Assembly (NCBI GenBank): GCA_037130375.1
Contig: JBAXTC010000002.1
Span: 1-53,906 of the forward strand
Direction: 5' to 3'
DNA length: 53,906 nucleotides
DNA from: Verrucomicrobiota bacterium
GTDB taxonomy: Bacteria > Verrucomicrobiota > Verrucomicrobiia > Limisphaerales > UBA8199
Position 1 is the first letter of the stretch, and each line of letters begins with the position of its first letter. This document shows, piece after piece, positions 2,617-44,146 of the stretch. Both the position numbers and the translations under genes were made by a program. The notes under the pieces are model-generated. The model made no database searches and was not told the origin of the DNA. It worked only from the letters and a program-made list of their open reading frames with translations.

Positions 2617-3417
2617 CTACTTATCTATCATCCAATACCAATCCTGATTGCCGTTCGGGCCTTTGATCATAAACAACCAGGCGCCCAATTGCGCGTGGCC
2701 GTCCGCCCAAGCATAGTTGATGCCTTTGCCGTGGCGGGTGTAGGTGTGCGAGTACTTGCCATCTCTGATCCACCAATGGCTCGGCGGGTCACAAAACCCA
2801 AATTGATCAATCCCCCAGCCGTTGTCCTGAGGTAGCACTGGGTCAATGCTGTCGCCGTTAGCCACCGTTTCCGAAGGCTTTTTGACCGAAGAGAGCTTCT
2901 GACGACCCCAAAACGGCGCGCCATAGGGCGGGGGCACCTTCTCCGCACCGTCGTAATAGCCCAAATAGTAAAAATTGTGCCCGTATCCACCGAAGGCGTT
3001 CGTGTTCATGTCGGAGCTGACACCAGCAATCTTATAGATCAGGTCCAGGTTCGCCGAGGGACACCTGGTCACGGTTCCGTGAACGTTCAAACCGGAGATT
3101 TTGTCCTGGCTCCTGCTAATATATGGCGAAATCTCCCTCGACCACTCGGGAGCATAGGCTGCGGCTCCGCCTTGCGATGCTGCCGCTACCGGCAGGAAGT
3201 CAGAGTTATCGCCGGCGTACATCAAATACCCCATGGCGATCTGCTTTTCGTTGCTCATGCAGCTGATGTTCTTGGCTTTTTCCTTCGCCTTGGCCAAGGC
3301 CGGCAAGAGCAACGCCGCCAGAATTGCGATGATGGCGATGACCACCAGGAGTTCGATCAAAGTGAACGCCGCCCCGTCCGTGCGACGCATGTCGAGAGCT
3401 TCCTTCTTCATAATCAT
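2617..3417 (-). CDS. Prepilin-type N-terminal cleavage/methylation domain protein with C-terminal H-X9-DG motif (pseudopilin-like, P1)
   Basis: Leader [17 protein letters not shown] is followed by [28 protein letters not shown], with Glu at +5. The C-terminus has [13 protein letters not shown]. This fits the TIGR02532 plus TIGR04294 type architecture (from memory). Confidence 0.9.
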
Positions 3418-3490: not shown

Positions 3491-5992
3491 TTACGGAAGT
3501 CGCATCCGGTAGAACACTTCCGGTAGGGTCGGATTGATTGTGATGCTCAGGCTGGTTGTGGTTTGCGAACCCGGGATATCAAACCAGGAGCTCGGGCTGG
3601 CCAAACTCACCGAGTTGGATTGCGCGTACCAACCCATGTGCGACGCCGGCCAGGTGAGCGTCAGGTTGGTCCCGCCGCTCACGCTAAATACAATGTTGGT
3701 TGGCGTTGGATTCACACTGGATACAACCTGTAAAACACCACTGCTTGGGTTGAAATTCCAGCCCAATCCCGCAGTCAGGCTCGGGAGGTTCGTGGCGGTG
3801 AAGAAGCTGCCGCTGGTCACGCTGGACGCGCTGACCAGCGAGAATGTGTCGCCACCTTGCAAGGGATCGCCCACATTCACCACGGTGAGGGTGCCACCCA
3901 AAGTCAGCGTGGTGATGCCAGCAACCTTGCTCGCGGTTTGGGCGTTGGTCCGGTTGAGAGCCATCAACGTCGTGCCGGAAAGGGTGAGGGTGTTGTTGAT
4001 GGTCAGAGTGGAAGTATCCAAACCACCCAAGCCCGGTTGCAGGGTCGCACTGGGCGGCAGGGACACCGGCACACTGATGACGCCGCTCCCGCCCAACGTG
4101 GTGCCGCTGGCGAGCGTCACCGCACCGCTGGCGAGCGAACCGTTCACTCGCAAGGTGCCTTCGCTTACGGTGGTAGCGCCGGTGTAGGTATTCGCGCCGC
4201 CGAGGCTTAATGCGCCGCTGCCAATTTTGGTCAAGCCACCGCCAGGGCTGGCGCTGTCCTGCTTCAGCGCAGCGGGAATCGTAACCGTATGAGCCCGGCT
4301 ATCAATCACCGCGCCGCCGCTCCGGATATAGGCGCTGCCGGTGCCATCAATGAAATTCCCCGCGTTGGCGGTCGCGCTCAGGACGCCCGCGTTGATATTC
4401 AGACGCGCATCGGAGGAACTCAGGTTCACTTGCAACACATTCGCTTTGGCCGCCGCCATGCCGTCGCCGATATTCATCGCGGAACTAGCCCCGCCCAGTG
4501 TCACCGTGGAGCCATTGGTGAGGGACCCACCATTGGCGATGCTCAGAACATTGCCCACCGTCGTCAAGTCAGTGGAATTGCCGATCGAAACATCACTGGA
4601 ACCAAGATCCCAAGATGAGCCCGCCCCCGTGATGGTGGCGGTGTTGTAGCTGGCTCCATTCGTCATGCCAATGTTAGCGGCAAAGCCGGTCACCACGCCT
4701 CCGCTGGCGATCGTCAGGCTGTTGGTCGAGGCGCTTTCCTGCCCCACTACTAAAAGGCCGCCGCTCTGCAACACGGAACCTGCCCCGGTTACCAGAACGC
4801 TATTCCCGTTGGCCCCGATACCAATGCGAGGAACGCCGATAGCAAAGCCGCCGCCGGAGACCGTCAGGGTGTTGGCCTTGCCCGCATTTCCCACCACGAG
4901 AAGAGCGGTGCCGCTGCCGGCATCCCAAGTCGAGCCGCTGCCGGTGACTGTTACACTATTGTTGTCAGCGCCCGCATTCCAGCCAAGGCCGCTATATCCA
5001 CTGCTGAGAACCGTGCCGCCACCGCTTATCGTCAGGCTGTTGTTCGGGCAGGCAGACCCCACCAGAAAAGTCGAGTTGTTCTGCCAGAGGGAGCCCGTCC
5101 CGGTAACGACTGCCGAGTTGTAACCAGGGTTCAGTGAGCTGTTGCCAACGATGCCGTCCGCATCGGTGATGGTTCCGCCGTCAGAGATCGTCAGGCTGTT
5201 CACCCCACCGTAGTATTGACCGCAAACGAAAGCGCCGAGGGTTTCCCACTTCGACCCGGCACCGGTCACCAACGCCGTGTTGTAACCGCCAAACCTGCCA
5301 ACATAAGCGCCGTCGCCGTTATAGATCGAGCCGCCATTGCTGACTGTTATGCTGCTTTGGACCACCCCGGCATCGAAGCCTACCCACAGGTAGGATTCAT
5401 TATGCATTACCGAGCCTGGCCCGGTCACAAGGACTTTGTTGTTGCCGTCGTAGGCTCCGATGTAGATCCAACTGCCAGCACCGCTAAGGGTCAGATTCCC
5501 GCCATTGCTGATCGTCAGGCTGTTGTTTCCCGCTCCGTAACCCATGTTGAAATCGCCAACGCCCAGCCAGGATGAGTTGGTGCCAGTGATTAGCGCGCTG
5601 TTGTGACCCGCCCAGGTGCCCAGGTAGGTGAGGCCGAGGCTGCTCATCGAGCCGCCATTGCTGACCGTCAGGCTGTTGTAACCTCCCACGTTGCCCACCC
5701 TGACGTTGGCGCTCTCCCAGGACGAACCGCTGCCGGTGACCAGCGCGCTGTTGTAGCTACCACCGGCCCCATTACCTATCCAACCGTAGTTGACGTTGAA
5801 CAGAGTGCCACCGCTGTTAATTTCCTGATAGTTGTTCGTCCCGGTGTTGCCGACTACATAATCAGCACCCGCGTTGTTAACCGCCGTGCCGCTGATGATA
5901 TTGGTGGTGTTGTCCTCGGCACGGGTGGACAACAAGCTCAGGGCGCTCAGGGCGCAGACCAGAGCGAGGGAGGATTTTCGATATATGTTCAT
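3491..5992 (-). CDS. Autotransporter-associated beta-strand repeat protein (secreted), lacking a beta-barrel translocator and ending in the shared FYR C-terminal module
   Basis: 833 aa with signal-like N-terminus MNIYRKSSLALVCALSALSLLSTRA. It has long degenerate G/S/N/T-rich repeats (NSLTISNGG, ALVTGxGS). It contains a TIGR02601-like unit LTKIGSGALSLGGANTYTGATTVSEGTLRVNG. The C-terminus is ...LTLTWPASHMGWYAQSN...EVFYRMRLP. Confidence 0.85.
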   Translation of the reverse strand: MNIYRKSSLALVCALSALSLLSTRAEDNTTNIISGTAVNNAGADYVVGNTGTNNYQEINSGGTLFNVNYGWIGNGAGGSYNSALVTGSGSSWESANVRVGNVGGYNSLTVSNGGSMSSLGLTYLGTWAGHNSALITGTNSSWLGVGDFNMGYGAGNNSLTISNGGNLTLSGAGSWIYIGAYDGNNKVLVTGPGSVMHNESYLWVGFDAGVVQSSITVSNGGSIYNGDGAYVGRFGGYNTALVTGAGSKWETLGAFVCGQYYGGVNSLTISDGGTITDADGIVGNSSLNPGYNSAVVTGTGSLWQNNSTFLVGSACPNNSLTISGGGTVLSSGYSGLGWNAGADNNSVTVTGSGSTWDAGSGTALLVVGNAGKANTLTVSGGGFAIGVPRIGIGANGNSVLVTGAGSVLQSGGLLVVGQESASTNSLTIASGGVVTGFAANIGMTNGASYNTATITGAGSSWDLGSSDVSIGNSTDLTTVGNVLSIANGGSLTNGSTVTLGGASSAMNIGDGMAAAKANVLQVNLSSSDARLNINAGVLSATANAGNFIDGTGSAYIRSGGAVIDSRAHTVTIPAALKQDSASPGGGLTKIGSGALSLGGANTYTGATTVSEGTLRVNGSLASGAVTLASGTTLGGSGVISVPVSLPPSATLQPGLGGLDTSTLTINNTLTLSGTTLMALNRTNAQTASKVAGITTLTLGGTLTVVNVGDPLQGGDTFSLVSASSVTSGSFFTATNLPSLTAGLGWNFNPSSGVLQVVSSVNPTPTNIVFSVSGGTNLTLTWPASHMGWYAQSNSVSLASPSSWFDIPGSQTTTSLSITINPTLPEVFYRMRLP

Positions 5993-6114: not shown

Positions 6115-7998
6115 TTAGCCTCCTGTTGGTTTAATATTAGCACGCTGTTGCGCGGCGGCTTTTGCGCCGTCACTCCTCTCCGACCGGAACCAGAGCGCCC
6201 ACCGCGTGGAATCGGCCACCGCAGTTTGTTCGGCGATGGGCCGAAGCAAGACAGTTTGGGGCTGGATCGGATAGCCACCAGGAAGGTAGGGCAGCGTGAG
6301 GTAGGCCGCGGGCGCGGTGAACAGGACACGTTGGTCGCCCATTTCCGCGGCTGGCTTGAGCGGCAAATCACCGGCAACACTTGGTGCCGGCAAGAGGACG
6401 AGGGTCTGTTTTTCTGGCGGCTCATCGAAGAAAGTCGGCGCATTCTGCGCGTTGACACCCAGAAACCACGGGCCGCGTAGAACGGCGACGCGGCTGGCGT
6501 CCTGCGGGTGCGGCAAAAGCCGAGTGCGCATCACGTAGAGAACAGTAAGCTTGTCTCCGGACTGCCAGCGGCGACGAACCTCCACACTTCCGGCTTGGGC
6601 GACACCTTCCACCGCGTTGCCGTTGAGCGTGAATTCCAATGCGGAGGCCCAGGCGGGCTGACGGAATCCCAAAGCATGTTCGACGCCGTCCGCTTTCGTC
6701 ACCCGTAGCGTAACGCTCGCGTCCTGCGCGAGCGATGAGTCCGCCTGCACCGCGAGGCCGGGGACGGCCCCTTGGCCATCCACGGGCAGATCATAGCAAA
6801 GCCGCGCTGGCTCGGAATGGAACGTGGCGTGAAATATTTCAGGAAAAGCCCGCAGCCCGTGGAACGTGCAGCACCACCAGGCGCGCGCACTCCAACCGTC
6901 AATGCCCTCGTCGGTCAACTTGTGGTGGCCAAAATCGCCGGTGTGGAATTGGTTGAAGAAGAACTCGTTGAACAGGGTTAACTCGGCGTTCTCGACATAG
7001 CGCGGGTTCCGCGTCTCAGCCCAAAGCCCCAGGTTCAACCTAAGCCAGTCAGCCTCCGAACAGCCTTCGTCGTTAGCGATGAGCGGTTTGAAAATCTCCG
7101 GCAAAGCCCCCTGCGGCAGCAGATTCCCCGAACTAAGGATCCCCTCCCATTCGGTTTCGACCTTTCGCAGCCATTGGACGTCGTGCGTGGCGCGGTAGAG
7201 CTCGAGCACGCCACGGAGAGCCGAGACAAATCCGTGGCTATGTTGCTTCGGATGGCGGTGCGTGTTGGCCGCGATCTGCTTGGCCAGATGTAAATACTTT
7301 TCGTCATGCGTGGCGCGGTTTAACTCCACCAAGCCCTCGGTGATTTGGGTCCAGCAGATATAGCCCACGGCCACCTGGTCGCCGCTGAATTGCTGCATGA
7401 CGGCAGGGTCGTTAAAACGCGGCCCAAGGTTAACGAAACAATCGCCGAGTCGCCGGGCGCAGGCGAGCACTTCCGGCATCGGCTTCAGGCGATGGTATTC
7501 CAGCAGCCCGATCAACAGGCGGCCGTTGCCCCAAAGCAGCGCCATGTCGCTATTGGTCACATTGCCCGTGCTAAAGGGATCGCCAAAGTGTCCGTCCGCC
7601 CTTTGCAACGGCACGAGTTTGGCAGCGACTCGATCCAGTTCAGGAATCTCTTTCCCGCTGAACTGGGCCACAGCGGCCAGCGCGTCCAGATAACGGCCCG
7701 ACACGTCGCCGCTAAACTCCGTAAACCGACGCACATGTTGCGGCACGGCATCGGCCAGGACGAAATCATCCGAATACACTGGCGGCCCGCCATGCAGCAC
7801 TCGATCCAGCGACAGATCCATCCGACTCGTCAGCTCTCCGGCAAGCGCGCCTGTGGCCAGGCACAGGCCGATAAGGGCAAAGGTGATGGAGCGATTTTGT
7901 CTATTCATACGGTCATTGAGGTTAAAAGCGTCACGCTCAAGATTCATATCAGAATCCCCCCACCAAGCGTTAGCCTCCGGCTGGTTTATACTTAGCAC
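6115..7998 (-). CDS. DUF1680 / GH127-GH146-like glycoside hydrolase (beta-L-arabinofuranosidase-type)
   Basis: 627-aa ORF. The real start is probably the internal Met at 7908 (MNRQNRSITFALIGLCLATGALAG is signal-like). It has an E-x-C motif (NDEGCSEADW) and a CC motif (AWWCCTFHGLRAF), as in the Zn/Cys active site of GH127-type enzymes (from memory). Confidence 0.6.
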   Translation of the reverse strand: MLSINQPEANAWWGDSDMNLERDAFNLNDRMNRQNRSITFALIGLCLATGALAGELTSRMDLSLDRVLHGGPPVYSDDFVLADAVPQHVRRFTEFSGDVSGRYLDALAAVAQFSGKEIPELDRVAAKLVPLQRADGHFGDPFSTGNVTNSDMALLWGNGRLLIGLLEYHRLKPMPEVLACARRLGDCFVNLGPRFNDPAVMQQFSGDQVAVGYICWTQITEGLVELNRATHDEKYLHLAKQIAANTHRHPKQHSHGFVSALRGVLELYRATHDVQWLRKVETEWEGILSSGNLLPQGALPEIFKPLIANDEGCSEADWLRLNLGLWAETRNPRYVENAELTLFNEFFFNQFHTGDFGHHKLTDEGIDGWSARAWWCCTFHGLRAFPEIFHATFHSEPARLCYDLPVDGQGAVPGLAVQADSSLAQDASVTLRVTKADGVEHALGFRQPAWASALEFTLNGNAVEGVAQAGSVEVRRRWQSGDKLTVLYVMRTRLLPHPQDASRVAVLRGPWFLGVNAQNAPTFFDEPPEKQTLVLLPAPSVAGDLPLKPAAEMGDQRVLFTAPAAYLTLPYLPGGYPIQPQTVLLRPIAEQTAVADSTRWALWFRSERSDGAKAAAQQRANIKPTGG

Positions 7999-8108: not shown

Positions 8109-9035
8109 ATGCTGGAATCTGCGACAAAGCACGTGGCTTGGAACCGGTACTTTCCGGATGCGCTTCGGATTGTGGCGGTTTTGGTAGAGGACCAGGAAGA
8201 TTATCCACCGCATGATCACAAATTTGTCGAAGTGGTGGTGGTGTGCGGAGGCGAGGGCTTCCAGGAAACCGCTCTAGGGAAAAGTAAGATCTCGCGGGGC
8301 GACGTCACTGTCTTTCGGCCCGGCGCTTGGCATGCCTACACCGACTGTCAAAAGCTCCGGCTCTACGATTGCTGCTTCGATCCTGGAATCCTGGGCCGGG
8401 AATTGGGCTGGATGATTGACGATCCGTGGCTGGGCCGCTTGTTATGGAGCATCCCCCTGTCCCCCGCCCAGTATGGGACGGCTTTCCTGCATCTGCACAA
8501 ATCTGAATTGAACCGTTGCCAGAACGTGCTCAAGGAACTTTGCTCCTTGAGCACGGCCGACAAGGCCAGTTATCGCGCCTACCAACTGGGACTGTTGATA
8601 TTGTTGCTTAGCACCCTGGCGCGTGAACTGCCTGCAGAAGCGACCCGCAAACCAGGGAAGCCCAACCCATCGGTAGTAGCCGCGCTGAAGCTCATTGACG
8701 ATAATCCGGAGCACCCCTGGACTTTGGACGCTCTGGCAGCCCGGGTGCATGTTTTGCCCGAGTATCTTGTTCGGGCGTTCGGAAACGTTGCCGGCCTGCC
8801 ACCCATGGCTTATTTGCGAAGGCGCCGACTCGAACTGGCAACCACCTTGCTCGTCCGCTCGGGCCAATCGGTTGGCGAAGTTGGCAATCTCGTGGGTTGG
8901 CCGGACGCAAACTACTTCACGCGGCGGTTCCGCGCGGAATTCGGCCTGACACCTTCCGCTTACCGGACACGGTTTGCGAACGTGCCTGGGATCCCGGGAA
9001 ACGGGAATTCCAAACCGCGCCACCTGGCTGGATGA
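8109..9035 (+). CDS. AraC family transcriptional regulator (cupin-like sensor plus AraC-type HTH)
   Basis: 308 aa. The C-terminal part WTLDALAARVHVLPEYLVRAFGNVAGLPPMAYLRRRRLELATTLLVRSGQSVGEVGNLVGWPDANYFTRRFRAEFGLTPSAYR is a classic AraC double HTH. The N-terminus is cupin-like (HDHKFVEVVVV...GAWHAY). Confidence 0.88.
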   Translation: MLESATKHVAWNRYFPDALRIVAVLVEDQEDYPPHDHKFVEVVVVCGGEGFQETALGKSKISRGDVTVFRPGAWHAYTDCQKLRLYDCCFDPGILGRELGWMIDDPWLGRLLWSIPLSPAQYGTAFLHLHKSELNRCQNVLKELCSLSTADKASYRAYQLGLLILLLSTLARELPAEATRKPGKPNPSVVAALKLIDDNPEHPWTLDALAARVHVLPEYLVRAFGNVAGLPPMAYLRRRRLELATTLLVRSGQSVGEVGNLVGWPDANYFTRRFRAEFGLTPSAYRTRFANVPGIPGNGNSKPRHLAG

Positions 9036-9042
9036 CCGGGTT

Positions 9043-10560
9043 TCATTTTCGGAAGCCGGTGCTACAAGGAAGCGGGTTCAGGGCGAGCGGCTGAGCGGCC
9101 CGCATTTCCTCCAAGCGGCGGCGAGTAATCGGATACTTCAGGAGGGGCATCAAAGATCCCAAGCACATGAAACCTCCGACCACAAAGGTCACGAAACCTA
9201 ACCGCCAGATCGCCTGGGGACTTTGGTTCATTGCTTCCACGTCCTCCGCTACTCTGTAGCCGATTAGATGCAGGCCGAAGCCAGAGGTAAGCATGCCGAT
9301 CGAACAGGCCAGCCGGTTGGCCAGGCTGAAGACCGACGCATAGGTGCCCTCCTTTTCCAGGCCCGTTTGCAGTCGATAAATCTCGGACAGATCGGCAATC
9401 ATCGCCGTAGCGATCGGGATCATGATGCCGACGCCAAGCCAGTAACTGGCGTGAAAGACGACGAAGGTCCATAAGGCTAACGGAAAACTGGTTCCACCCA
9501 TGTGTAAAATTGTCCCTGGCGGCACGAGCCCGGTGAGGAAGATCAGAGCCAGAGCGATGTTGGCCCCGGAGCCGATCAATCCGCCCACCAACACCGTGCC
9601 TTTCTTGTCAAATCGCCTCGTCAGTCTCACAGAGAAAAATGCGCCCACCGCCCACCCCACCATCGTAGTGGTGTGAGCGAGGGTCTTTTCATTGGCCGAG
9701 AACTTCATGAAATCGTCGTAAATGAATACTTGCAAGGCACTCACCCACATGCTGCCAATACCAATCACCAGCACAAAAGTAAAAACGCGGCGTATGTTGG
9801 GGTCAAACAGGATCTGCTTCATATTGAACATGAACTTCCTGGTCTCGCCGCCGTCGGCATTCCGGAGCGCGTGACGCGTATCCTTGCGCCCGCGAAATGT
9901 GCCAGCCACGACCAACAGGACGAAAAACAGCGTGGCCAGCGAGAATAGCATCCCCATCCGGAAATAATTCGCGGCCACAGTGGTCCCGCGGATGCCACCC
10001 CGATCCTGAAAAAAGAGCGACCACGCCATGGCTGGACCGGCGAGATTAGCCGCCATGTTAAATATTTGTCTTATGCTCTGGAGCCGGGAACGCCCCTGAT
10101 AATCGGCGCACATTTCAAAGCCCAGCGCCATATAGGGAATGCAGAACAGGGTGAGCCCCGTCCGCAAGACCAGGTTGAGCAGCACTAGATACCAGAAGAT
10201 TGACAACTGGCTGGTCCGAAACACCGCCGGCACGGCCCAAATCAGGTAAGAACAAGCGGCCATGAGCAAGCCACCGACAACCATATAGGGATGCCGCCTG
10301 CCCCAGTGGCTGCGGGTATTATCGCTGACATGCCCCATTACCGGTTCGGTAATCGCCTCCCAGACCACCGACATCGACATGGCGATGCCCGCCCAGGCAG
10401 GATCCAATCGCAGTGCCTTGGTGTAGTACAGCATCGCAAAAGCGAAAATGCTGTTCATCACCAATGAACTCGCGCACTCGCCCGACCCATAAATCAGCAT
10501 CCGGAATAACGAGCATGACGTCGGTGTGGCAGCAGCCCGCGCCGTGGATTCCTGATTCAC
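9043..10560 (-). CDS. MFS transporter, glycoside-pentoside-hexuronide (GPH):cation symporter family
   Basis: 505 aa with about 12 hydrophobic segments. It has a GPH-type loop signature PVMGHVSDNTRSHWGRRHPYMVVGG. It converges on the AraC gene with a 7-bp gap. Confidence 0.85.
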   Translation of the reverse strand: MNQESTARAAATPTSCSLFRMLIYGSGECASSLVMNSIFAFAMLYYTKALRLDPAWAGIAMSMSVVWEAITEPVMGHVSDNTRSHWGRRHPYMVVGGLLMAACSYLIWAVPAVFRTSQLSIFWYLVLLNLVLRTGLTLFCIPYMALGFEMCADYQGRSRLQSIRQIFNMAANLAGPAMAWSLFFQDRGGIRGTTVAANYFRMGMLFSLATLFFVLLVVAGTFRGRKDTRHALRNADGGETRKFMFNMKQILFDPNIRRVFTFVLVIGIGSMWVSALQVFIYDDFMKFSANEKTLAHTTTMVGWAVGAFFSVRLTRRFDKKGTVLVGGLIGSGANIALALIFLTGLVPPGTILHMGGTSFPLALWTFVVFHASYWLGVGIMIPIATAMIADLSEIYRLQTGLEKEGTYASVFSLANRLACSIGMLTSGFGLHLIGYRVAEDVEAMNQSPQAIWRLGFVTFVVGGFMCLGSLMPLLKYPITRRRLEEMRAAQPLALNPLPCSTGFRK

Positions 10561-17666: not shown

Positions 17667-18938
17667 TCACCAGCGCCGCAACGAGTCCTCGGTTGTTTCT
17701 TCCACGCGGGCATTGACGCGCTCGGTGAAGCCGGGGCGGAGTTTTGTGCCCAGGCCGGGCTTGGCCGGCACCGCGATGTGGCCTTCGCTCACCGGAATGC
17801 GATCGGTCACCACGTCGTTATACCAACCGTCGAGATAACCCCGGACTGTCTCCATGATGAGCGCATTGGGAATGTGCAGCATGAAATGCACGGCGGCCCA
17901 GAGCGCTACCGGCCCAATCGTGTCGTGGCAAGTCACTGGCAAGTAATACGTGTCCGCGAGGCTGGCGATCTTGCGGCCTTCCGTTAAGCCGCCGCCCCAG
18001 GACAAATCGGGCATGATAATGTCTGCCGCAGCTTGCTCGATCCAGGGACGGAAGCCAAATCGGGTAAACACGCGCTCGCTTTGGCAGAGCGGGATTTTAG
18101 TCGCCTGCTTGAGGCGCACATAGGCTTCGGGATTATCTGGCGGCATGATCTCTTCCAGCCACATAATGTCGTAAGGTTCCAGCGCCCGGGCGATGCGGGT
18201 GGCTGTCGGCAAATCCCATCGCGCGTGGCCCTCGATAGCGATACTCATCTGATCCCCAACCGCCTGGCGGATGGATTCCACCACCGCGATCCCGCGCTTC
18301 AGCTCCTCAAGGGCAATCGAATGGCTGAGCACGCCTGCCGCCGTCGTTGCGCCCCAAATGACCACCGGCTCGCGCGGCTTGTCCGGTCCCCCCAGAGACC
18401 TTCCAAACTGATCGAATGGCCAAATCTTCATCGCGCGAATGTCCTGCCGCAGCAAGTCCCTGGCGAGTTCACCGGCCTGGCCTTTCATTACCAGTTCCAT
18501 GTCGGTGTATTTCCCGAAGCTCACGCAGGTGTTATAGATAGGGATGCGGTCGCGACTGCGTCCGCCGAGCAGGTTGTAAATTGGCTGGCCGAGGTGCTGG
18601 CCTGCAAGGTCCCAAAGCGCCAAATCCAGCGCCGAGAGCGCCCGCATTTCCGCCCCGGCAAACCCGCAAAAGTTTACCAGTGAAAATAAATTGTTCCAAT
18701 GGCTTTCGAGATTAAGCGGGTCGCGCCCGATGAGCAGCGGGGCAAAAGCTCCATGAACGACGGCCGCTACCGCACGCGGCAAATAATAGGTCTCTCCCAG
18801 CCCGACCAAGCCGTCATCGGTATAGATGCGGACCCACAAATTGTTGGGCAGAACCTGGCGAGCGCTCGGATTGATTTTGCGCCACTCAGCTTCCGGCAGC
18901 GCCTCGAACCAGATGGTCTCGATTTTTGTGATTTGCAT
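17667..18938 (-). CDS. Enolase-superfamily enzyme (mandelate racemase/muconate lactonizing family; sugar-acid dehydratase-like)
   Basis: 423 aa. The N-terminal capping-domain pattern is MQITKIETIWFE...LWVRIYTDDGLVGLGETYY. The barrel region carries acidic metal-ligand positions (IAIEGHARWD, MWLEEIMPPD, LCQSERVF). Confidence 0.85.
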   Translation of the reverse strand: MQITKIETIWFEALPEAEWRKINPSARQVLPNNLWVRIYTDDGLVGLGETYYLPRAVAAVVHGAFAPLLIGRDPLNLESHWNNLFSLVNFCGFAGAEMRALSALDLALWDLAGQHLGQPIYNLLGGRSRDRIPIYNTCVSFGKYTDMELVMKGQAGELARDLLRQDIRAMKIWPFDQFGRSLGGPDKPREPVVIWGATTAAGVLSHSIALEELKRGIAVVESIRQAVGDQMSIAIEGHARWDLPTATRIARALEPYDIMWLEEIMPPDNPEAYVRLKQATKIPLCQSERVFTRFGFRPWIEQAAADIIMPDLSWGGGLTEGRKIASLADTYYLPVTCHDTIGPVALWAAVHFMLHIPNALIMETVRGYLDGWYNDVVTDRIPVSEGHIAVPAKPGLGTKLRPGFTERVNARVEETTEDSLRRW

Positions 18939-19235: not shown

Positions 19236-20069
19236 TCACGGACTTAGGACTACCGTGCAATGTTGTTGCAACCACGCGACATCCACGCTGTTCGGGGAGG
19301 CGAGGTACGTCAGAACCTGCGTGGTTCCGGATGGAACGGCGGTGCGCGAATCGCGCCATTTATGGATTTCAGAATGTCCATCCATAAAACAAACGCCACA
19401 GGCATTATTGTGCCGGCTTGCGGGGATATTGGCCCACATAGCCCTTGGACCGGTGTCTATCATGTCCACCCCGAACGCGCCATCGTCTATGCTATCCTCG
19501 CGCTCGTCAATAAATGTGAATATGTCCGAAGGTCTTGCGACATCAGACATCTTGCGGAAATTCTGGAACTTGACATCCGGAGCATAAATCCAACTGTCAG
19601 GGCAATTCAACTTTTGATTGGCGGCATAGCTTCGCACACGTTCAATTGTGGCGCCTCCCATTAGTGCAGTGCTACGGTCGGCGGGGCATTTGTAAACCGC
19701 GATGCTGTTCAGATAAGGATACAACTTCCCGGCGGGCCACTTGAGATTGGTGGTGTTGGTATTGTCCCTGACGTTAGCCGTGCCGAGTACCATCCACCCC
19801 TGAACCCAGCCGCCGGGTTGACTCAGCCAGGCACAGGGTATAATCTGATTATTGTTATCGTTGGCGTACATGATCCCCGCAAGGCTGAGTTGTCGGAGGT
19901 TGTTCGCACACGCAGTCCTTTGCGCCGCTATTTTCGCCTTGGTCAGCGCTGGTAAAAGCAACGCCGCAAGAATTGCGATGATGGCGATGACCACCAACAG
20001 TTCAATTAGAGTGAAAGCGCGCATCACAATGCCGTTGCCTTCGCTCGTTGATAGACTTTGATATTTCAT
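19236..20069 (-). CDS. Prepilin-type N-terminal domain / H-X9-DG pseudopilin-like protein (P2)
   Basis: [18 protein letters not shown]|[28 protein letters not shown]. The C-terminus has [13 protein letters not shown]. Confidence 0.9.
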
Positions 20070-20160: not shown

Positions 20161-20997
20161 CTATCGCACCGGAGTCGCTACGGCAGCTTGCATGCGACGC
20201 AAGTCTTTGCTATTCGGGGTGGGTGTAAAATAAACGTGGAGATGTCCGGTGCTCGGTTCGAGCCAATGCCAGTACTCGGCGTGGCCATCAGCAAATGCCA
20301 GGGTGCAGCCATAGTCGTGAATCACAGTAGGCCAGTTGCCCCACGACTGACGTTCTGCGGGCGTTCCCCACATGCCGTCGTCAATGCTGGCACCGGCTTC
20401 GTGAATAAACGTCAAGGCTTGAATGGGCGATGGATGTAAAATGTCCGTGTCCTTATGGTTGACGCGATAATGGTTCGGTGAAAAATCCCATTGCGCTTGA
20501 TAATCGGGTCTGCCGTTCATCGACGCGTTCAAAGAGTAGCTGCGGACCCGCAAGTCCCTACCGCCCGTAGCCCCGCGTATCGGTTCGTTAGGAATCGTGC
20601 TGCGGTCCAAGGGACAGCGGTAGATACCCAAGGATTTGTTATAGGGAAAAAGAAAGCCGGTTTTAATGAAATTGCTATTGGTTGCCTGGTCGTTCATCAC
20701 CATGCTTCCCAGAATCCACGAGTTTTGGAGGTCGCTTCCAAGGACTTCCTGAGCGATGTCGTTGCCAACCAACCGGCCATTGTTATCGCCGTAATACATT
20801 ATCCAGCACACGTCCATTTGCTTTAGGTTGTTGAGACAACTTATCCGCAGGGCTTTCTGCTTGGCGTTGGAAAGTGCCGGCAGCAGGAGGGCGGCGAGAA
20901 TTGCGATGATGGCGATTACGACCAGCAGCTCGATTAGCGTAAAGGCGCGACTCGCAACGCCTTTGGTTTCAGATCTCGACAGCTTCCGTATTGTCAT
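20161..20997 (-). CDS. Prepilin-type N-terminal domain / H-X9-DG pseudopilin-like protein (P3)
   Basis: [18 protein letters not shown]|[28 protein letters not shown]. The C-terminus has [13 protein letters not shown]. Confidence 0.9.
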
Positions 20998-21117: not shown

Positions 21118-24100
21118 TTACTCACGAATGCGATAATACTTTTGGACACCCGTCGGGGTTATGGTCCACGGACTGCTGGCCCCGACTACGTCAGCGTAGG
21201 CTCCGGCCGCATTTGTGGCAGACTGCAAAATGCCGCTGCCAGACCAAGTGAGGGTCAGGCTGCCACCTGAGTACGTCGCCGTGATCGGCAGGAGGATGGC
21301 AGCGCTTTCGGTCGGGCCAATTCCCGCCGGGGTATATGCGGGATTGCCTGACAGCACCAGCTTGTCAAAGACGAACCCGTCTTCCCGCATCCATACGTTG
21401 ATGATGTGAGCGCCGCTTGTTGGGACCGTGAACGTAGCACCCGTCGGCGTCGGGGTCGAGCCCCAAGCGTAACCAGCCGCTTGTGGCCATTGGCCATTCT
21501 CGCGGAAAGCTACAACGCCGTCCAACCCCAAATTAATGGAGTCACTTGCGCCCCCAGCATCGCTATCCCCTGAGCCGCGCACCCAGACAGTGAATGTGCC
21601 GCTTGTGGCGAAATAAACGCGGTAGTCCAGCTCCGGGATGCCGACCGGCATGTCGCCGGGATTGTAACTATAGGATGTGCCGGAGTTCGGGAGGGCAACC
21701 ATGCAGCCGGTGCCAGAGAAGTTCGTGTTGACCGACGTGGGCAACAGGAAAGGTGAGCTGGTGGTGAAGGTCCAACTTTGGCCGGCTCCCGGCGTGTTCA
21801 GGGTATAATTCTCAGCCTCAAGAACCAAAAGGTTGTTGGCGCTTGAATCCTGGAGCCGGGCCACGTCGCTAGGCACGGCAATCGTGACAGGGGTGGTCGC
21901 GGCATTACCCGCCCAATCGGTGACGCCGGTGGCGGTTAACGTATAGGTTGGCCCCCAGTTAATCGGGGAGGTGGTGAGGCGCACAGTTGTCGCATTAACC
22001 ACCGTGGCAGCACTGACTGTCACACCATGATTAATGGCATACTTCGATGCATTTGCCGCCGTACCTGGGGTGACGGCACTCGAAAACACGACCGTCACCT
22101 CTGTGTTCTGATTAATGCTGACCGTGGCAGAAACCAGCCCGGGTCCGCTTGCCGCCGGCGTGAAATACTTGCTGATCAAGTAATTTTGAACCGCAGTATC
22201 TTGAGCAGGTGACACACTGGTATAAACCAGGATTTCCGAGATGTCGCCAACAAGGTTTTGGGTGCCGCCTGGGAAGAGCGCCCCAATCATAAAGCCGCGA
22301 GCGGTAGTATAATCAATAGCCTTCGTGTTCGGAAGAATCCCGACTTGAACGGTATTAAGAGCCAGAGTCTGGTCTCCAGGATTCGCAAACGCGGCCACGA
22401 TCAAAGTTGGCACCCGGTTGCCCAGGACGGGACTCGGGTCGATGGGGTAATACGAATTTCCGACGCCGCCTGCCCCTCCCCCCCACGTGGCCCATTTTAA
22501 TGCTCCTGCGCGGGAGTCGCTGCCTCCCAAGACATAGCCTTCCCAGTTACCGATAAAGTCATCTGATTGTTTCGCGGCGTCCAAGTCACCGACGAGATAA
22601 ATGGTAATATTTTGCAGATTAAAGGCAGCCGTGCCAGCAACTAGCAGACCGCATGTGCCATCGAAACTAAGCACCGAGTGCATGGCGTTCGGACAAGCCA
22701 CTTGCCCGACTTTCACGTTTCCAAAAGACGGAAAGGCGGAGTGGGTCATGCTCGGGTCGGATTGGTCATCCCATTGATAAACGCCAATGCTGTCGGACAT
22801 AACGTTCGTATCGGCTGCCAGCCACAAAAGCCGATTCGCTGAAGGAGGCGTACTCACTATGCCAGGGATCGGTATGGTGGCTTTTGCGTCTGTCGCAACA
22901 TTCCCATACCTGTCTTGAACGCCGTTCACGGTGAGAGTGCTCGGCGCGGTGGTTATCGGAGTGGTGCTCAAAACAACCGAGGTAACGAAATTCGTGCCCT
23001 CTGCCGCTGTTGCGCCATTGACGGTGACGCCATTATTGATGCTGTAGTTGGCAATAGTGGTGGCGGTGGACGCGCTCACCAGCCCAGAAAAGACTACGGT
23101 CAACTTCGTCGAATCAGCATAATCCCGCAAGGCTGACAGCACCGTGGGTTTATTGGTTGGGACAATCACCGTTAAAACGGCACCGAGGCTGTTCGTGAAG
23201 CCAACACTGTTGCTCACTTTAACGCTATAAACGCCCGAATCACCCCCTGTCGCGCTCGCTATGGTATAAGTCGGAGAATCAGGCGCGCCAACAATCGGTG
23301 TGCCCGGTGTGCCTTTCAGCCACTGATACGAAAACGGAGGTGTTCCGTCGGCAAGCACCGAGAAACTGACGGGCGAAAAGACCGGCACGCTCGTGCCCTG
23401 CGGCTGGGTCGTGATCACCGGAGGTCCGGCGTTGAGGAAATATTTGGTCAGCAGGTAAGCTTCGGTGGCCGCCAGTTCACTACCGGAGAGCGTACGGTTG
23501 TACATTACCACTTCCGCAAGGTCGCCGGCGAATCGCTCAGACGCGCCACCGAGGCCCAACACGTTATCGGGAGGAGTGGCTCCCTGCGTATGGCAACAAA
23601 TTGTGAACGGTTCACCTACCAAACCACCGCCGCGACCCACTCCTGTCATGGAATAGTTTGCCCAGCCGCCCGTGGAACGGAAATATTCCCGGAAGGACAA
23701 GGTGCCCCCGGCAGTGACATTCATTTCAATAATTGACCATTCGGGAGCTGTCGGTATGGGATTTCCGAGGTTGAACACCACCGGCGAGACGTACGTAACA
23801 AACATATAGCTCGGGACAGCTTCCCATTCGCCCAATTCATAGGGACATGCAGCCCCGCGTTTGGCAACAATACACGGAGCTCCCCCCACACCGTGAACGG
23901 CGTTGTTCTGGAAAACGACGATAATGGTGATGTCGTGTGTCGGATCAATCAGTGTGGGGTCGTTTGCATCCAGATTGTTCGTCTGCCAAAGGCGATCGGC
24001 CAAATGGCCATTTGGGGGAGGGATCGAGGGATCGTTGGCCTGGCGGAAATGAACGGCATTGAACGTGAGACCGTTATTGTTCGCGACAATCAACTGTGGC

Positions 24101-24823: not shown

Positions 24824-26935
24824 TCATCTCAACGACCGGTAGGCAATCACCGCGGCCGAAGGTTTTTCTTTGAGCGTCACCGTTAAGCCTTGCTGCATCA
24901 ACTCCCGGCCTGTGCGGACTTCCTTGCCGCCGTCAAAGTTCTCCACCTCGAATCGCGCCTTTGATTCCAAGCCGCGCAGCTTGAAGTTCATGCTCTGCTC
25001 GCCGCTGTCCGGACGGCGGAATACCTGCACCACGCCCTCGCCCAAATCCGGCCGATCGAACTGCCACGCCAGCCACACGTCATCCTTAAGGCTGTATGGC
25101 GTGAGCGGGTAGAAATCTCCGAGCATGAGGTGCGCGACCCGGCTGCATTCGTCGTAGGCCTGCTGTGCGCCGGAAACGGTGGGACCGTCCCACGGGGTCA
25201 TGGAGGGAGCGTAATAACTGCGGGTCATAAAGGGCTCGGCGAAAAAGCCGGCGTTGCCGTAGTAGGGCAGCCAAGCCGCCAGAGCAAGCGTCTGGCTTTG
25301 GGTCGCCAGCGCGTTGGTTCGCGTCTTCGAGACGAAGTCCGTCCGGCAAAGCGGCACCGCTCGGCGCATGGACTCAAGGTCGTTGCGCCGTCCGCCTGAC
25401 GCGCAGGAATCGATGAATAGGCCCGGATGACGCAGGCGCAACTGGTCCCAAAACGCAAGATGCCCCTGGACGTAAAGGTTCTCGGTCATGCCTTGGCGGT
25501 CAGAGACGTCGTGCTTGCGGCAGGCCGGCAGTGGTCCGCCCCCATTCATGTCCTCGCGATACCAGTCGATTCCTTCGGACCGAATCATCCCACTGACATG
25601 GTTGATGAGCCACTGCAGCGCTTCGGGGTTGCCCAGGTTCAGCAACGCACCGTGCGAGGTGCCGGGCAGCAGCCAGTCCGGGCGGTCCCGCGCGAGCCAG
25701 GAGTTGGTGTCCCCGACGCGTTCAGGTTCAAACCACAGAATGAATTGTTTGCCATTGGCATGGAGCTTTTCGGTAAACTCACTGAATCCGTTCGGCAGAC
25801 GGACCGGATCAGGGATCCAAGTCCCGGTGTTCAGCCAGCGGTCGCTCCCGGCGTAGGTTCCGTTGTCGCAAGGGTACCAACCGGCATCGACCCACAAGGC
25901 GGTGAGTTTGGATCCGGGCGCGGCGATGATTTCCGTCACGGCCCGGCAGTTGACCTCTGACTGCTCCGCCAGCGGGGAGGGGCAAGTGGAAATCATCGGC
26001 GGCGGCAATTTCCCCCTTGCACGCGGCATGTTGTGCGCCACGAACCAACGCCGCCAGAGATTCTGTGCCTGCACCAAGTCGTCTCCTGAATAAAACACCA
26101 TCGCGATCAACGGCGTGCGGATCTCTTCCCCGGGCTTGAGCGAAAGATGCGTGGTCTGCTGGCCGGCGACGATTCTCAAACTGTTCGCGTCCCCGCGCTT
26201 AAATGAACTGGCCCATTGACCCGGCCAGCCAATCGCCAGGATCAAACCCCCTCCCGGCATCTGGAGATTGTAATAAGGCCAACCCCGCGGCCCGTCGCAG
26301 GATTTTCCCGATGCATCCGGGGGGCCAAACTTCTGCTCCAAACCTGGAGTCAAAGACACCTGGTAGGGTTCGTAGCTGTCCATGGCGCAGAAATCGCCTT
26401 TGTTGCAGTGCAACAGAAACTCGCCATTGCCGGACTTTTCAAAACGCGTGTCCAAACCCTGAATCTCTTTCAGGATCAGGGTGTCCTTAATTCCGGTGTT
26501 CCGAAAGTAAACGATCCACTCCACAGCCGGATAGTCCGTGTACTCTACCGATTCGCAGCGCACCACCATGCCTGTCGCGGGATCGCTCCAAGTCATGCTG
26601 CGCTCGGTACGGCCAGCCCCCGGGTTTCTGCTGCGAACTCTCAATTTCCACTGGCTCAGCAGTTCCCCGGAATCCCGACCGCCGTAGATGAACGAAAAGG
26701 GAAGGACAGGTTTTTCTCCAAGAATATGTTGTTGCGACCATCGATCCCGCTCCTGGACGGCCGCCGGCGTTACGAGTTCGGAATCGGCAGTAAGCGTCTC
26801 GCGAAACAAAAAAAACGCCACGACCGAGGACCACACCACGCCCGTGAGTCGCAGTTTTCGGCGCATACAAGGGCCGCCCATGCTGGCAACCCCCATAAAA
26901 TCACTCAGACGAGTTTTGCATTTGGCAGCTTTCAT
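24824..26935 (-). CDS. GH36-like (clan GH-D, alpha-galactosidase-type) glycoside hydrolase, paralogue 1
   Basis: 703-aa ORF. The likely start is Met24 at 26866 (MRRKLRLTGVVWSSVVAFFLF is signal-like). The nucleophile-type motif is GIDWYREDMNGG and the acid/base-type motif is IDSCASGGRRNDLESMRR. Compare GH36 KWDMN and CSGGGGRxD (from memory). Confidence 0.75.
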   Translation of the reverse strand: MKAAKCKTRLSDFMGVASMGGPCMRRKLRLTGVVWSSVVAFFLFRETLTADSELVTPAAVQERDRWSQQHILGEKPVLPFSFIYGGRDSGELLSQWKLRVRSRNPGAGRTERSMTWSDPATGMVVRCESVEYTDYPAVEWIVYFRNTGIKDTLILKEIQGLDTRFEKSGNGEFLLHCNKGDFCAMDSYEPYQVSLTPGLEQKFGPPDASGKSCDGPRGWPYYNLQMPGGGLILAIGWPGQWASSFKRGDANSLRIVAGQQTTHLSLKPGEEIRTPLIAMVFYSGDDLVQAQNLWRRWFVAHNMPRARGKLPPPMISTCPSPLAEQSEVNCRAVTEIIAAPGSKLTALWVDAGWYPCDNGTYAGSDRWLNTGTWIPDPVRLPNGFSEFTEKLHANGKQFILWFEPERVGDTNSWLARDRPDWLLPGTSHGALLNLGNPEALQWLINHVSGMIRSEGIDWYREDMNGGGPLPACRKHDVSDRQGMTENLYVQGHLAFWDQLRLRHPGLFIDSCASGGRRNDLESMRRAVPLCRTDFVSKTRTNALATQSQTLALAAWLPYYGNAGFFAEPFMTRSYYAPSMTPWDGPTVSGAQQAYDECSRVAHLMLGDFYPLTPYSLKDDVWLAWQFDRPDLGEGVVQVFRRPDSGEQSMNFKLRGLESKARFEVENFDGGKEVRTGRELMQQGLTVTLKEKPSAAVIAYRSLR

Positions 26936-29872: not shown

Positions 29873-30673
29873 CTACCAGTAGAAACCGAAGGCACCCCCA
29901 AAGAACTGCTTGGCCTTGTCCAACCCTGTCACGGCGTTGGTGTATTGTCTCCAACTCATTCCCTCAGAATGTCCGTCCATGAAGGCGAGATTGCCAACGT
30001 CGCCGTGGTACTTTGTTCCGAGATGATCCGTACCTTCTGGATTCTCGGCCAGGAAGAGGGTCATCCCATTGTCGTACTGCGAGTTGTCCGGTTCGAAGAC
30101 CAGTAAAGTTCGCGATGGCGAACTGCGGAGCGAGCTCAACTTTAGGTCGAGAAGCGTCTGGTTTCCAGGCGCCGGAGGGTAAATAGACATCGCGGCCTGG
30201 CCATTGATCGTGTAACTCCAAGAAGGATACGTTAGGGGAGGTGCCGTGATATTGAAGCCCCAGAATCTGAGATTAGGTTGTCCGTCGGGAAGCAATGGCT
30301 TGCGCATAGCGTAAGTGGGGCAACGAAATACGCCAACGGACTTCCCCACATAGCTCCACAGCAGACCGGTGGCAAGGTCCCCTTGTTTTTCCGCGCCCTG
30401 GAGACGCCGGTCGGCTGGCCAGGCATAATCGGGATCGTGAAACTCCCAACCCCAGCCGGGGATATAGTCCTTGTAATCATTGGCATACATCATGAACCCA
30501 AGGCCAATTTGCTTCAAGTTGCTACGGCAGCCTATGGATTGTGCTTTCGCCTTGGCCTTGCTCAAGGCGGGCAAAAGCAGCGCCGCCAGAATCGCGATGA
30601 TCGCGATTACCACCAGCAGTTCAATGAGAGTGAAGGCTCTTTTTCCCTGTTTCCAGAATGCTGTTTCGATCAT
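29873..30673 (-). CDS. Prepilin-type N-terminal domain / H-X9-DG pseudopilin-like protein (P4)
   Basis: The ORF is open to 30784, but that extension would cover a conserved hairpin. The likely start is ATG at 30673, giving a 13-aa leader [13 protein letters not shown]|[28 protein letters not shown]. The C-terminus has [13 protein letters not shown]. It is a close paralogue of P5 and P6. Confidence 0.88.
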
Positions 30674-30761
30674 GAGGGAACAATCTTCGAAGTGGGACAT
30701 TTCCACGACTCTTGTCTTACATTGAATAGGCGATTCGACCTGCCAACCGATTAGTTGCGGT

Positions 30762-30797
30762 CTGCATCGCAGGGGTGTTGCCACCCCCGCGTGCAGG
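30762..30797 (-). other. Intergenic stem-loop between the 887-aa LamG gene and P4 (related to the hairpins at 21053 and 39480)
   Basis: The sense strand reads CCTGCA-c-GCGGGGGUG-gcaa-CACCCCUGC-ga-UGCAG. That gives 9 bp (including one G.U) plus 5 bp of outer pairing. It sits 18 nt after the stop at 30815. No U-tract follows. Confidence 0.5.
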
Positions 30798-34581: not shown

Positions 34582-35379
34582 ATGAAATGGGGCAATGACT
34601 CGAAAACCGGACAAAACGGCAGGGGAATCCTTGCGTTTACCTTGATTGAACTGTTGGTGGTCATAGCCATCATTGCGATTCTTGCAGCCTTGCTCCTGCC
34701 CGCGTTGAGCCGGGCTAAAGGGAAGGCGCAAGCGATGGGCTGCCTCAGCAATCTGCGGCAGATCGGCATTGGTTTCACGATGTACGCGAATGATTTCAAG
34801 GATACGATTCCCTGCTGGGGATGGCAGTTTCACGATCCTGCCTATGCCGGTCCGCCCGATCGGCAGATTCAGGGGACGGAGAAACAGGCGGATTTCAGCA
34901 CGGGCCTCCTGTGGAACTATGTGGCACGTTCTGCCGCGGTCTTTCGCTGCCCGACTTACACTATTCGTCAGCCAACCTCGCCGAGGTTTTGGGGGTTCAA
35001 TTCCACCACCCCTCCGTTGCCATATCCCCTGTGGGACTATTCTATCAATGGCCAGGCAGGCTACTCGTGCATCTCACCGGCACTCGTCAACAGCACCCTC
35101 GATCTCAAACTGAGCAGCCTCCATACGCCGCCAGCCAAAACACTCCTGGTAATGGAGCCGGATAATATGGCGTACGATAACGGCGTCACCCTTTTTGACG
35201 GCACGCTGGATCCCCTGAACCAGGATCATCTTGGAACTCGCTTCCATGCCGATGTTGGTTCCCTTACGTTTATGGATGGACACGCAAACAGCATGAAATG
35301 GAGAACCTACACCAACTCCACCTCGGGGCTGGAAAACGCCAAGCAGTTCTTTGGCGGCAGCTTCAATTTCTTCTGGTAA
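34582..35379 (+). CDS. Prepilin-type N-terminal domain / H-X9-DG pseudopilin-like protein (P5)
   Basis: MKWGNDSKTGQNGRGILA|[28 protein letters not shown]. The C-terminus has H-ADVGSLTFM-DG-H. It shares WGWQFHDP, FRCPTY and the C-terminal KQFFGGSFNFFW with P4 and P6. Confidence 0.9.
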   Translation: MKWGNDSKTGQNGRGILAFTLIELLVVIAIIAILAALLLPALSRAKGKAQAMGCLSNLRQIGIGFTMYANDFKDTIPCWGWQFHDPAYAGPPDRQIQGTEKQADFSTGLLWNYVARSAAVFRCPTYTIRQPTSPRFWGFNSTTPPLPYPLWDYSINGQAGYSCISPALVNSTLDLKLSSLHTPPAKTLLVMEPDNMAYDNGVTLFDGTLDPLNQDHLGTRFHADVGSLTFMDGHANSMKWRTYTNSTSGLENAKQFFGGSFNFFW

Positions 35380-39524: not shown

Positions 39525-39600
39525 GACCATCTTGCGGCATGCAAGCACTTAAGAAAAGGAAAGTAGCACCGCAAGGTGGTATGTGGAAGGGTACATTAGT

Positions 39601-44115: not shown

Positions 44116-44146
44116 GGTTGGAGTAGCTCGCGTTTGTTGTGTTGGT

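Follow-up and report, generated by a model that had tools for sequence, protein, structure and literature searches.

Seven C-terminal modules at one locus

The window analyzed here is the whole stretch of 53,906 nucleotides (54 kb) at positions 1 to 53,906 of contig JBAXTC010000002.1 (GenBank assembly GCA_037130375.1), which comes from a Verrucomicrobiota bacterium of the Limisphaerales. Seven of its open reading frames (ORFs), labelled by position as g3491, g21118, g30815, g35673, g38269, g46414 and g52105, encode proteins that share a homologous C-terminal module of 65-80 aa, as seen when the last 80 aa of the ORF translations are aligned. The portion of each protein in front of the module is referred to as its passenger. 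In the list below, E-values are from a profile built only from sequences outside the window, unless marked as leave-one-out, and the asterisk is the stop codon; T5SS stands for type V secretion system.

3494-3739, minus strand: module of g3491 (833 aa), ending ...EVFYRMRLP*; E 9.6e-11, envelope 786-867 of the ORF piece; passenger of PATR and T5SS/PEP-CTERM-associated repeats
21121-21318, minus strand: module of g21118 (1079 aa), a short six-strand variant ending ...KYYRIRE*; E 2.7e-8, leave-one-out E 1.3e-6; passenger of Ig_3, LamG, Big_5 and a GH115_C-like domain
30818-31021, minus strand: module of g30815 (887 aa), a paralogue of g21118, ending ...KYYRLMQ*; E 7e-9, leave-one-out E 8.7e-14
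35676-35927, minus strand: divergent module of g35673 (730 aa), ending ...ELLRVKIQQ*; E 5e-8; passenger of a 5'-truncated GH36 C-terminal part, PKD, DUF2341 and LamG
39256-39459, plus strand: module of the g38269 ORF, ending ...TFYRLSE*; E 8.5e-12
46417-46668, minus strand: module of g46414 (1858 aa), ending ...RFYRIATP*; E 2e-9; passenger of CotH, three lamin-tail (LTD) domains, CHB_HEX_C_1 and TSP3
52108-52341, minus strand: module of g52105, the most canonical copy, ending ...RYYRLKQ*; E 3.5e-24; passenger of Ig_3 and LamG, with an N-terminus beyond the window end

Circularity was avoided by two controls. Leave-one-out hidden Markov models (HMMs), each built from six window copies, recovered the left-out protein in five of seven cases (E 8.7e-14 to 2e-5); g35673 was found at E 0.012, still ranked over every non-member, and g46414 was not recovered by its six-sequence model. 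The second control, a profile made from 62 external sequences only, matches all seven proteins, from E 3.5e-24 for g52105 to 5e-8 for g35673. Each of these matches reaches the final residue of the ORF, flush with the stop codon, and the next best among 748 six-frame ORF pieces is at E 0.11. Profile scans of the window ORFs gave no eighth or internal copy.

A preliminary description of this DNA had aligned the same seven C-termini, and its alignment is borne out as quoted, including the divergent g35673 and the CotH giant g46414; its coordinates are right to about 30 nt when compared with the boundaries from the external profile. The further statement that the seven belong to different giant proteins goes slightly too far, as g21118, g30815, g38269 and g52105 are paralogues across most of their length, one carrier is a remnant and one is truncated at its 5' end. 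Signal-peptide-like N-termini are present in g3491, g21118, g30815 and g46414, the four window proteins with intact N-termini. The unusual ending of g35673 is shared by its close relatives P0002, P0003 and P0101.

Distribution and position in the protein

Word-indexed homology searches for the module gave only a few short fragments, and an exhaustive HMM search was needed. Among 1.84 billion representative proteins, this search found 7,150 protein clusters that carry the module at E <= 1e-3. Scans with Pfam-A and NCBIfam left the module without a covering model, both in the window proteins and, at E <= 1, in ten canonical relatives. The canonical subtype is confined almost wholly to Verrucomicrobiota, and a tblastn search of plasmids gave no match. 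Module genes also cluster as paralogues, as seen in the seven copies of this window and in several copies within some 12-kb genome loci.

The C-terminal bias proposed in the preliminary description is strong at the level of whole proteins, with more than 90% of carriers ending 0-6 residues past the module. Among the best 150 proteins plus earlier matches, 146 of 166 (profile A1) and 154 of 167 (profile A2) have their last copy at most 6 aa from the C-terminus. The exceptions are mostly other things, namely classical Fn3 arrays cross-matched by the profile; among them are P0037, P0046 and P0080, the ends of which are bona fide type A sorting domains of type IX secretion (T9SS). Two sets of loci, from genomes and from metagenomes, were drawn from the subtype alignments A3 and A5, each sampling one subtype only. 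The 79 genome loci are labelled almost all as Verrucomicrobiota, Limisphaerales or Pedosphaera, and 106 of their 114 module ORFs stop 0-4 residues past the profile (89 at 0). The metagenome set, which represents the g3491 subtype (80 loci), behaves likewise in 86 of 88 module ORFs.

The short "module-only" proteins P0171 and P0175, which come from long-contig assemblies, are 3' pieces of larger, apparently frameshift-split genes (L161:5721-8399 and L162:1816-8390). Such fragments inflate the count of small carriers in protein databases.

An Fn3-superfamily domain that ends after strand F

The preliminary description named no described function for the module, which is, however, related to a known domain. 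Alignment of profile A2 with a profile of 38 genuine Fn3 domains in hhalign gives 96.2% probability (E 2.2e-9) over 69 columns, in which the terminal FYRL pairs with the (H/Y)YRV motif of Fn3 strand F. The alignment stops at column 89 of the 113 in the template; columns 90-113, which comprise the FG loop and strand G, are left unpaired because the protein ends. The module HMM also cross-matches Fn3 arrays in P0037, P0041, P0046, P0142 and P0155. A profile-profile alignment that ends at strand F indicates an Fn3-superfamily domain truncated after that strand, and, as judged from sequence, the module is an uncatalogued member of the superfamily of this kind. Strands A, B, C, C', E and F are retained, while the FG loop and strand G are lacking; that strand G is missing is seen as well in the 2-3-residue tails past strand F and in the linkers of about 6-8 aa between tandem copies. 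The short variants (g21118, g30815 and g38269) have six strands, and longer ones add a strand between C' and E.

Predicted structures are compatible with this assignment. The AlphaFold2 model of the g52105 module, made from a 69-sequence alignment, is a six- to seven-strand β-sandwich with pLDDT 91.6 and pTM 0.75, and the model of the last 100 aa of g3491 (pLDDT 87.9) has strands A, B, C, E and F at residues 35-39, 43-47, 56-60, 81-85 and 94-98. Foldseek comparison of both models with the PDB gives weak matches (best E 0.02, TM 0.4-0.6, none at E <= 0.001), the top ones being nearly all Fn3 domains from cytokine receptors, TENCON, monobodies, FN3con and the FNIII domain of integrin beta4. For the g52105 module the best PDB matches are cytokine-receptor Fn3 domains, and a sequence-profile search of the PDB likewise returns weak matches to Fn3 proteins.

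In comparing the module with ordinary Fn3 domains, the likeness extends across strands A to F in the profile match and includes the same strand-B Trp and the strand-F pattern aromatic-x-R-aliphatic. Unlike Fn3, the module stops after strand F, at the protein end and between tandem copies alike, is strongly C-terminal, has a basic tail and falls below the Pfam fn3 threshold. The Pfam model fn3 (PF00041) has no match to the module in the window proteins, and its best score on canonical relatives is 11 bits (E 0.49) against a cutoff of 25. Each of the two outcomes that, in the preliminary description, would count against a signal came about in half: the module is Fn3-like, as in a known Fn3/Ig repeat without positional bias or correlated machinery, and internal copies exist, but the positional bias of whole proteins survives.

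Chaperone-usher pilins are incomplete Ig-fold subunits that are completed by donor strands. The module would resemble them in being an Ig-like sandwich without the final G strand, in which strand F would form an open edge according to the models and the alignment; in contrast to these pilins, the module shows no sign of a donor strand, chaperone or usher, and AlphaFold2 models it confidently alone.

Tandem arrays, the terminal tail and domains that follow the module

Many of the top matches hold 2-8 tandem copies, which repeat about every 72 aa with short (about 6-8 aa) Pro-rich linkers such as TQTP and LPPP in between, and these arrays still extend to the C-terminus. What comes after strand F sets terminal copies apart from internal ones. 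In 110 of 139 terminal copies, a tail of 2-3 residues follows the (F/Y)(Y/F)R(L/V) strand; it has R or K at +1 (76 of 139), K, Q or R at +2 and P at +3, and of the 139 copies 55 end in P and 31 in Q. The net charge is +0.86 for terminal tails vs +0.16 for the linkers after internal copies. The resulting short basic consensus, FYRL-[RK]-[KQR]-P, is thus a signature of terminal copies that is absent from internal ones. The window tails, read from the aliphatic residue after the Arg (MRLP, IRE, LMQ, LSE, IATP, LKQ and VKIQQ), fit this family pattern.

A free C-terminus is not seen in every carrier. In eight of the 114 genome-locus ORFs (about 7% of one subtype; loci L003, L014, L045, L051, L054, L055, L072 and L080, e.g., L051:5701-7035), the module is followed by a 276-aa FGE-sulfatase domain (PF03781, E 1e-49 to 5e-55), the only consistent non-C-terminal setting found. 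Against the PorK/GldK model, from the same fold family, the FGE part has a weak score below cutoff. The statement that the module always sits at the very C-terminus stands for all seven window proteins and for most carriers but fails for internal array copies and for the FGE-sulfatase fusions. Tandem arrays of the module make internal copies common, but the positional bias of whole proteins holds nonetheless.

In some small secreted proteins, such as P0019 (511 aa) and P0170 (146 aa), a signal peptide is followed by a motif of about 55 aa (..GGG.S....Y.v.GtiGQPDA....GGFW..) and this in turn by one to six modules, so that the array makes up nearly all of the protein. The motif matches no library family.

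Passengers and comparison with known C-terminal signals

Domain scans confirm that the passengers differ greatly and are typically extracellular. Beyond the window, an alignment of 35 carrier proteins together with library scans shows Ig_3/I-set, Big_7/9, LamG, lipase and α/β-hydrolase, LVIVD, Calx-beta, DUF11, β-helix, PKD, PATR, CotH, LTD and the GH36 C-terminal part. The dominant passenger in Limisphaerales loci is the GloVer "choice-of-anchor" repeat TIGR03803: of 82 passengers there, 60 fall into a single BLAST cluster, three ORFs of which were confirmed as TIGR03803. Choice-of-anchor Q (NF041518) is another passenger family, and g3491 and its relatives combine the T5SS/PEP-CTERM-associated repeat TIGR04393 with PATR. 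In NCBIfam names, we take "choice-of-anchor" to denote families with interchangeable C-terminal anchors. Carriers with TIGR03803, NF041518 or TIGR04393/PATR have no autotransporter barrel and no PEP-CTERM match, and the module holds the usual anchor position on passengers of all three families. By analogy, its most likely role may be the one that PEP-CTERM, the T9SS C-terminal domain (CTD) or an autotransporter barrel has on related passenger families elsewhere.

Library scans agree with the earlier view that the module bears no T9SS, PEP-CTERM or LPXTG signature. A tripartite signal of the PEP-CTERM or LPXTG type is rejected, as there is no match to TIGR02595 or PF07589 in the window proteins or canonical relatives and none of the 167 carriers has a C-terminal hydrophobic helix (an 18-residue stretch of mean Kyte-Doolittle >= 1.8 in the last 45 aa). 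T9SS CTDs of type A or B are rejected for the window proteins and canonical relatives, which do not match TIGR04183, TIGR04131 or PF18962; as a positive control, TIGR04183 was detected where it is present (P0037, P0046 and P0080). Comparison of the module with the CTDs of these three proteins by hhalign gives 0.1% probability, and no T9SS CTD occurs in the top 50 Foldseek matches of either model. The window itself has no PorK/L/M/N/Sov or PorU gene. An autotransporter is rejected because g3491 and its relatives lack a PF03797 or TIGR01414 barrel and end in the module, and a dockerin because the window proteins and canonical relatives have no PF00404 match and the predicted structure is all-β.

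In T9SS CTDs, the conserved last strand carries a basic residue, and the tail is of importance (PMC11285876; PMC4804311). The module is like the type A CTD (TIGR04183/Por_Secre_tail) of Bacteroidota in that both are β-sandwiches of about 70-80 aa placed at the very C-terminal end of diverse Sec-exported cargo, with many paralogous carriers per genome region. The two have no sequence similarity, and the CTD is a single-copy 3+4 seven-strand fold, whereas the module has six or seven strands in Fn3 topology and can be tandem. Verrucomicrobiota are not known to have a T9SS. By ancestry the module is an Fn3 domain; its behavior most resembles that of the T9SS CTD, which is a likeness of working and not of membership. 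It shares with the PEP-CTERM/exosortase, LPXTG/sortase and "choice-of-anchor" signals its position on TIGR03803, NF041518 and TIGR04393 families, but it is a folded domain and not a tripartite peptide, without signature motif, transmembrane helix or basic cytoplasmic tail.

Possible function

The reading favored here, with a probability of roughly 0.4, is that the module, a truncated Fn3 domain expanded in this lineage, serves as a C-terminal attachment or sorting element of Sec-exported verrucomicrobial surface proteins, in which tandem copies form a stalk and the last copy contacts an envelope partner. A surface-anchoring or sorting role is plausible in view of the position, the tail and the passengers, and an export route, a docking mode and a partner may be inferred as follows. 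The N-terminal signal peptide, which is seen in the sequences, would carry the protein across the inner membrane, and the folded protein would get to the cell surface. There the last module would dock non-covalently on an envelope partner, for example an outer-membrane protein or anionic lipopolysaccharide or glycan, through the exposed edge of strand F, the invariant Arg and the short basic tail ...FYRL-[RK]-[KQR]-P-COOH. Extra tandem copies would act as a stalk that holds the N-terminal passenger off the cell.

Several points weigh against an anchoring or sorting role. One-copy secretion tags offer no parallel to arrays of 2-8 tandem copies, and P0019 is nearly all module array; together with the FGE-sulfatase fusions, the arrays indicate that the module is not a strict one-copy signal, and the eight fusions by themselves indicate that a free C-terminus is not obligatory. 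No envelope or export gene recurs among the clustered non-module ORFs of the 79 genome loci. The Trp/Arg ladder of cytokine-receptor Fn3 domains offers a comparison for the invariant Trp, Trp and Arg of the module, which could be purely structural in the same way. The absence of strand G was read from sequence alignment and DSSP strings, not from coordinates. Finally, the best-150 list behind the counts for profiles A1 and A2 is score-biased to multi-copy proteins, and each locus set represents a single subtype.

The main rival is an ordinary structural or adhesive Fn3-like block (a stalk, spacer or protein binder), the C-terminal bias of which would be historical, arising from fusion at the 3' end and tandem duplication, so that the end after strand F is a mere domain boundary. 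Such a block fits the clear Fn3 homology, the arrays with their 72-aa period and Pro-rich linkers, the near module-only proteins P0019 and P0170 (the latter with a signal peptide), the FGE-sulfatase domain that can come after the module and the lack of any machinery in the search made for it. Yet it leaves unexplained why more than 90% of carriers, with very different passengers, end 0-2 residues past the profile, why terminal copies have a distinct basic tail ending in Pro or Gln and why the module holds the anchor position in "choice-of-anchor" and T5SS/PEP-CTERM-associated families. It is regarded as possible, though on the whole somewhat unlikely.

More speculatively, the module could be the cargo tag of a new Verrucomicrobiota pathway for outer-membrane translocation or surface attachment, functionally analogous to the T9SS CTD, in which the open edge of strand F and ...FYRL-[RK]-x-P would be read by a dedicated receptor or by pseudopilus components, perhaps through β-strand augmentation. 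In this strong form the proposal is doubtful.

A related explanation is an export tag read by a type II secretion system (T2SS)- or pseudopilus-like system, where a downstream prepilin-type gene with an H-X9-DG motif would be the dedicated partner that recruits, pushes or displays the cargo. The window holds six prepilin-type N_methyl/DUF1559 genes with this motif, encoding proteins of about 265-300 aa:

2617-3417, minus strand: pilin-like gene after g3491
20161-20997 and 19236-20069, minus strand: two pilin-like genes after g21118
29873-30784, minus strand: pilin-like gene after g30815
39583-40383, plus strand: pilin-like gene after g38269
34582-35379, plus strand: pilin-like gene convergent with g35673

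Five of the six lie directly downstream, on the same strand, of four of the seven module genes in an arrangement of giant protein then pseudopilin, and the sixth is convergent with a fifth module gene; g46414 and g52105 have no downstream pilin-like gene. Among metagenome relatives of g3491, a pilin-like gene is found at most 500 bp downstream in 24 of 83 (binomial p about 9e-8); these 24 come from 37 pilin-like ORFs in 470 kb, for a background of about 37 per 428 genes. An Fn3 domain also takes part in a known T2SS signal, as loops of the Fn3 domain and the catalytic domain form the composite signal of Pel3/PelI (PMC7949064). The likeness to Pel3/PelI lies in an Fn3-type domain on secreted proteins and in the pseudopilin genes that adjoin some module genes, but the module is C-terminal, truncated and common to thousands of unrelated cargoes. 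In the GloVer subtype, however, none of 106 module ORFs has a downstream pilin-like gene, by which the link is ruled out as a general rule. The difference between the two subtypes (24/83 vs 0/106) indicates that the link is real for some passenger types or lineages and is not a property of the module, and the association may follow the passenger type (PATR or LamG). Furthermore, the window cassettes are paralogous duplicates and not independent events, and some metagenome loci are near-identical. A T2SS-type tag is considered improbable.

Less probable still is a role in carbohydrate or substrate binding, by which enzymes and lectin-like proteins would be tethered to polysaccharide. The window looks like a glycan-utilization region (sugar transporters and an AraC regulator beside three GH36 genes and one GH127 gene), the module has two near-invariant Trp residues, and a glucanase/chitosanase (4zy9), CBM21 and a limit dextrinase give weak matches in sequence or fold. 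These matches are weak (E >= 0.004) and generic to β-sandwiches, though, and the strand-B Trp is the Fn3 core Trp. Most carriers are not glycoside hydrolases but GloVer repeats, PATR, lipases or CotH proteins, and carbohydrate-binding modules have no such strict flush ending at the C-terminus. A divergent member of a described sorting signal (T9SS CTD, PEP-CTERM, LPXTG-type or autotransporter) has only the analogy of a small C-terminal β-sandwich with a conserved last strand and basic residue (PMC11285876) in its favor and, given the library, hhalign, hydrophobic-helix and Foldseek results above, is effectively refuted at the sequence level and can be dismissed.

No described verrucomicrobial C-terminal sorting domain of this kind was found in the searchable literature. 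The element represents a truncated, positionally constrained Fn3 family that is uncatalogued, and it is a credible candidate for a verrucomicrobial module of surface anchoring or sorting. Export and retention of giant surface proteins and polysaccharide-degrading enzymes are poorly understood in Verrucomicrobiota and the wider PVC group. Were the module to act as an anchor or sorting tag, the surface proteome of a phylum abundant in soil, freshwater and gut could be defined bioinformatically in one line, the cognate machinery could be sought by phylogenetic profiling, and surface display would gain a portable tag. As at least 7,150 clusters carry a module that is absent from Pfam-A and NCBIfam, a curated model is deserved even if the module is only structural, and a natural Fn3 domain that folds without strand G would be of interest to protein design.

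Neighboring genes

The preliminary description proposed a test for co-occurrence of the module with a candidate processing or export gene. No universal partner was found in the 79 genome loci, and only the g3491 subtype is enriched for a neighbor, the pseudopilin. Besides more GloVer proteins, only a Ser/Thr kinase and an ECF-type sigma factor recur as neighbors in these loci. In metagenome-assembled genomes of Limisphaerales, genes that combine GloVer repeats with the module often adjoin a Ser/Thr protein kinase of about 1,240 aa (L078:907-4638, minus strand, and nine other loci), and an ECF-type sigma factor lies next to such genes at L036:2808-3557 (plus strand) and five other loci; both identities come from recognized sequence motifs, not from library scans.

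Paralogues, remnants and surroundings in the window

The g38269 ORF (37976-39462, plus strand) is a deleted, frameshifted remnant of a paralogue of the g30815/g21118 type. By tblastn, paralogue residues 30-98 lie at 38057-38263 and residues 493-887 at 38254-39459, the two segments being in different frames, which amounts to a deletion of about 395 aa plus a frameshift; the remnant could be a pseudogene or an assembly error. On the opposite strand, g35673 (35673-37865, minus) starts inside a GH36 domain and has no signal peptide, its residues 1-220 matching residues 515-735 of the intact GH36 gene at 44147-46369. About 110-190 bp separate the truncated 5' end of g35673 from the point where the g38269 remnant region starts (37976/38057). 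These adjoining truncated ends suggest a rearrangement or deletion that removed both 5' parts.

The CotH carrier g46414 (46414-51990, minus strand) combines its CotH kinase and lamin-tail domains with CHB_HEX_C_1/Fn3_assoc, bacterial TSP3 repeats and the C-terminal module, and also has a LamG-like segment paralogous to g30815. The surroundings resemble a glycan-utilization island with three GH36 α-galactosidase paralogues (one with NPCBM), a GH127-like gene, MFS and SSF transporters, an AraC regulator and two enolase-superfamily dehydratases. The genes of this island lie at 6115-7998, 24824-26935, 26988-29585, 44147-46369, 9043-10560, 483-2357, 8109-9035, 17667-18938 and 42937-44166.

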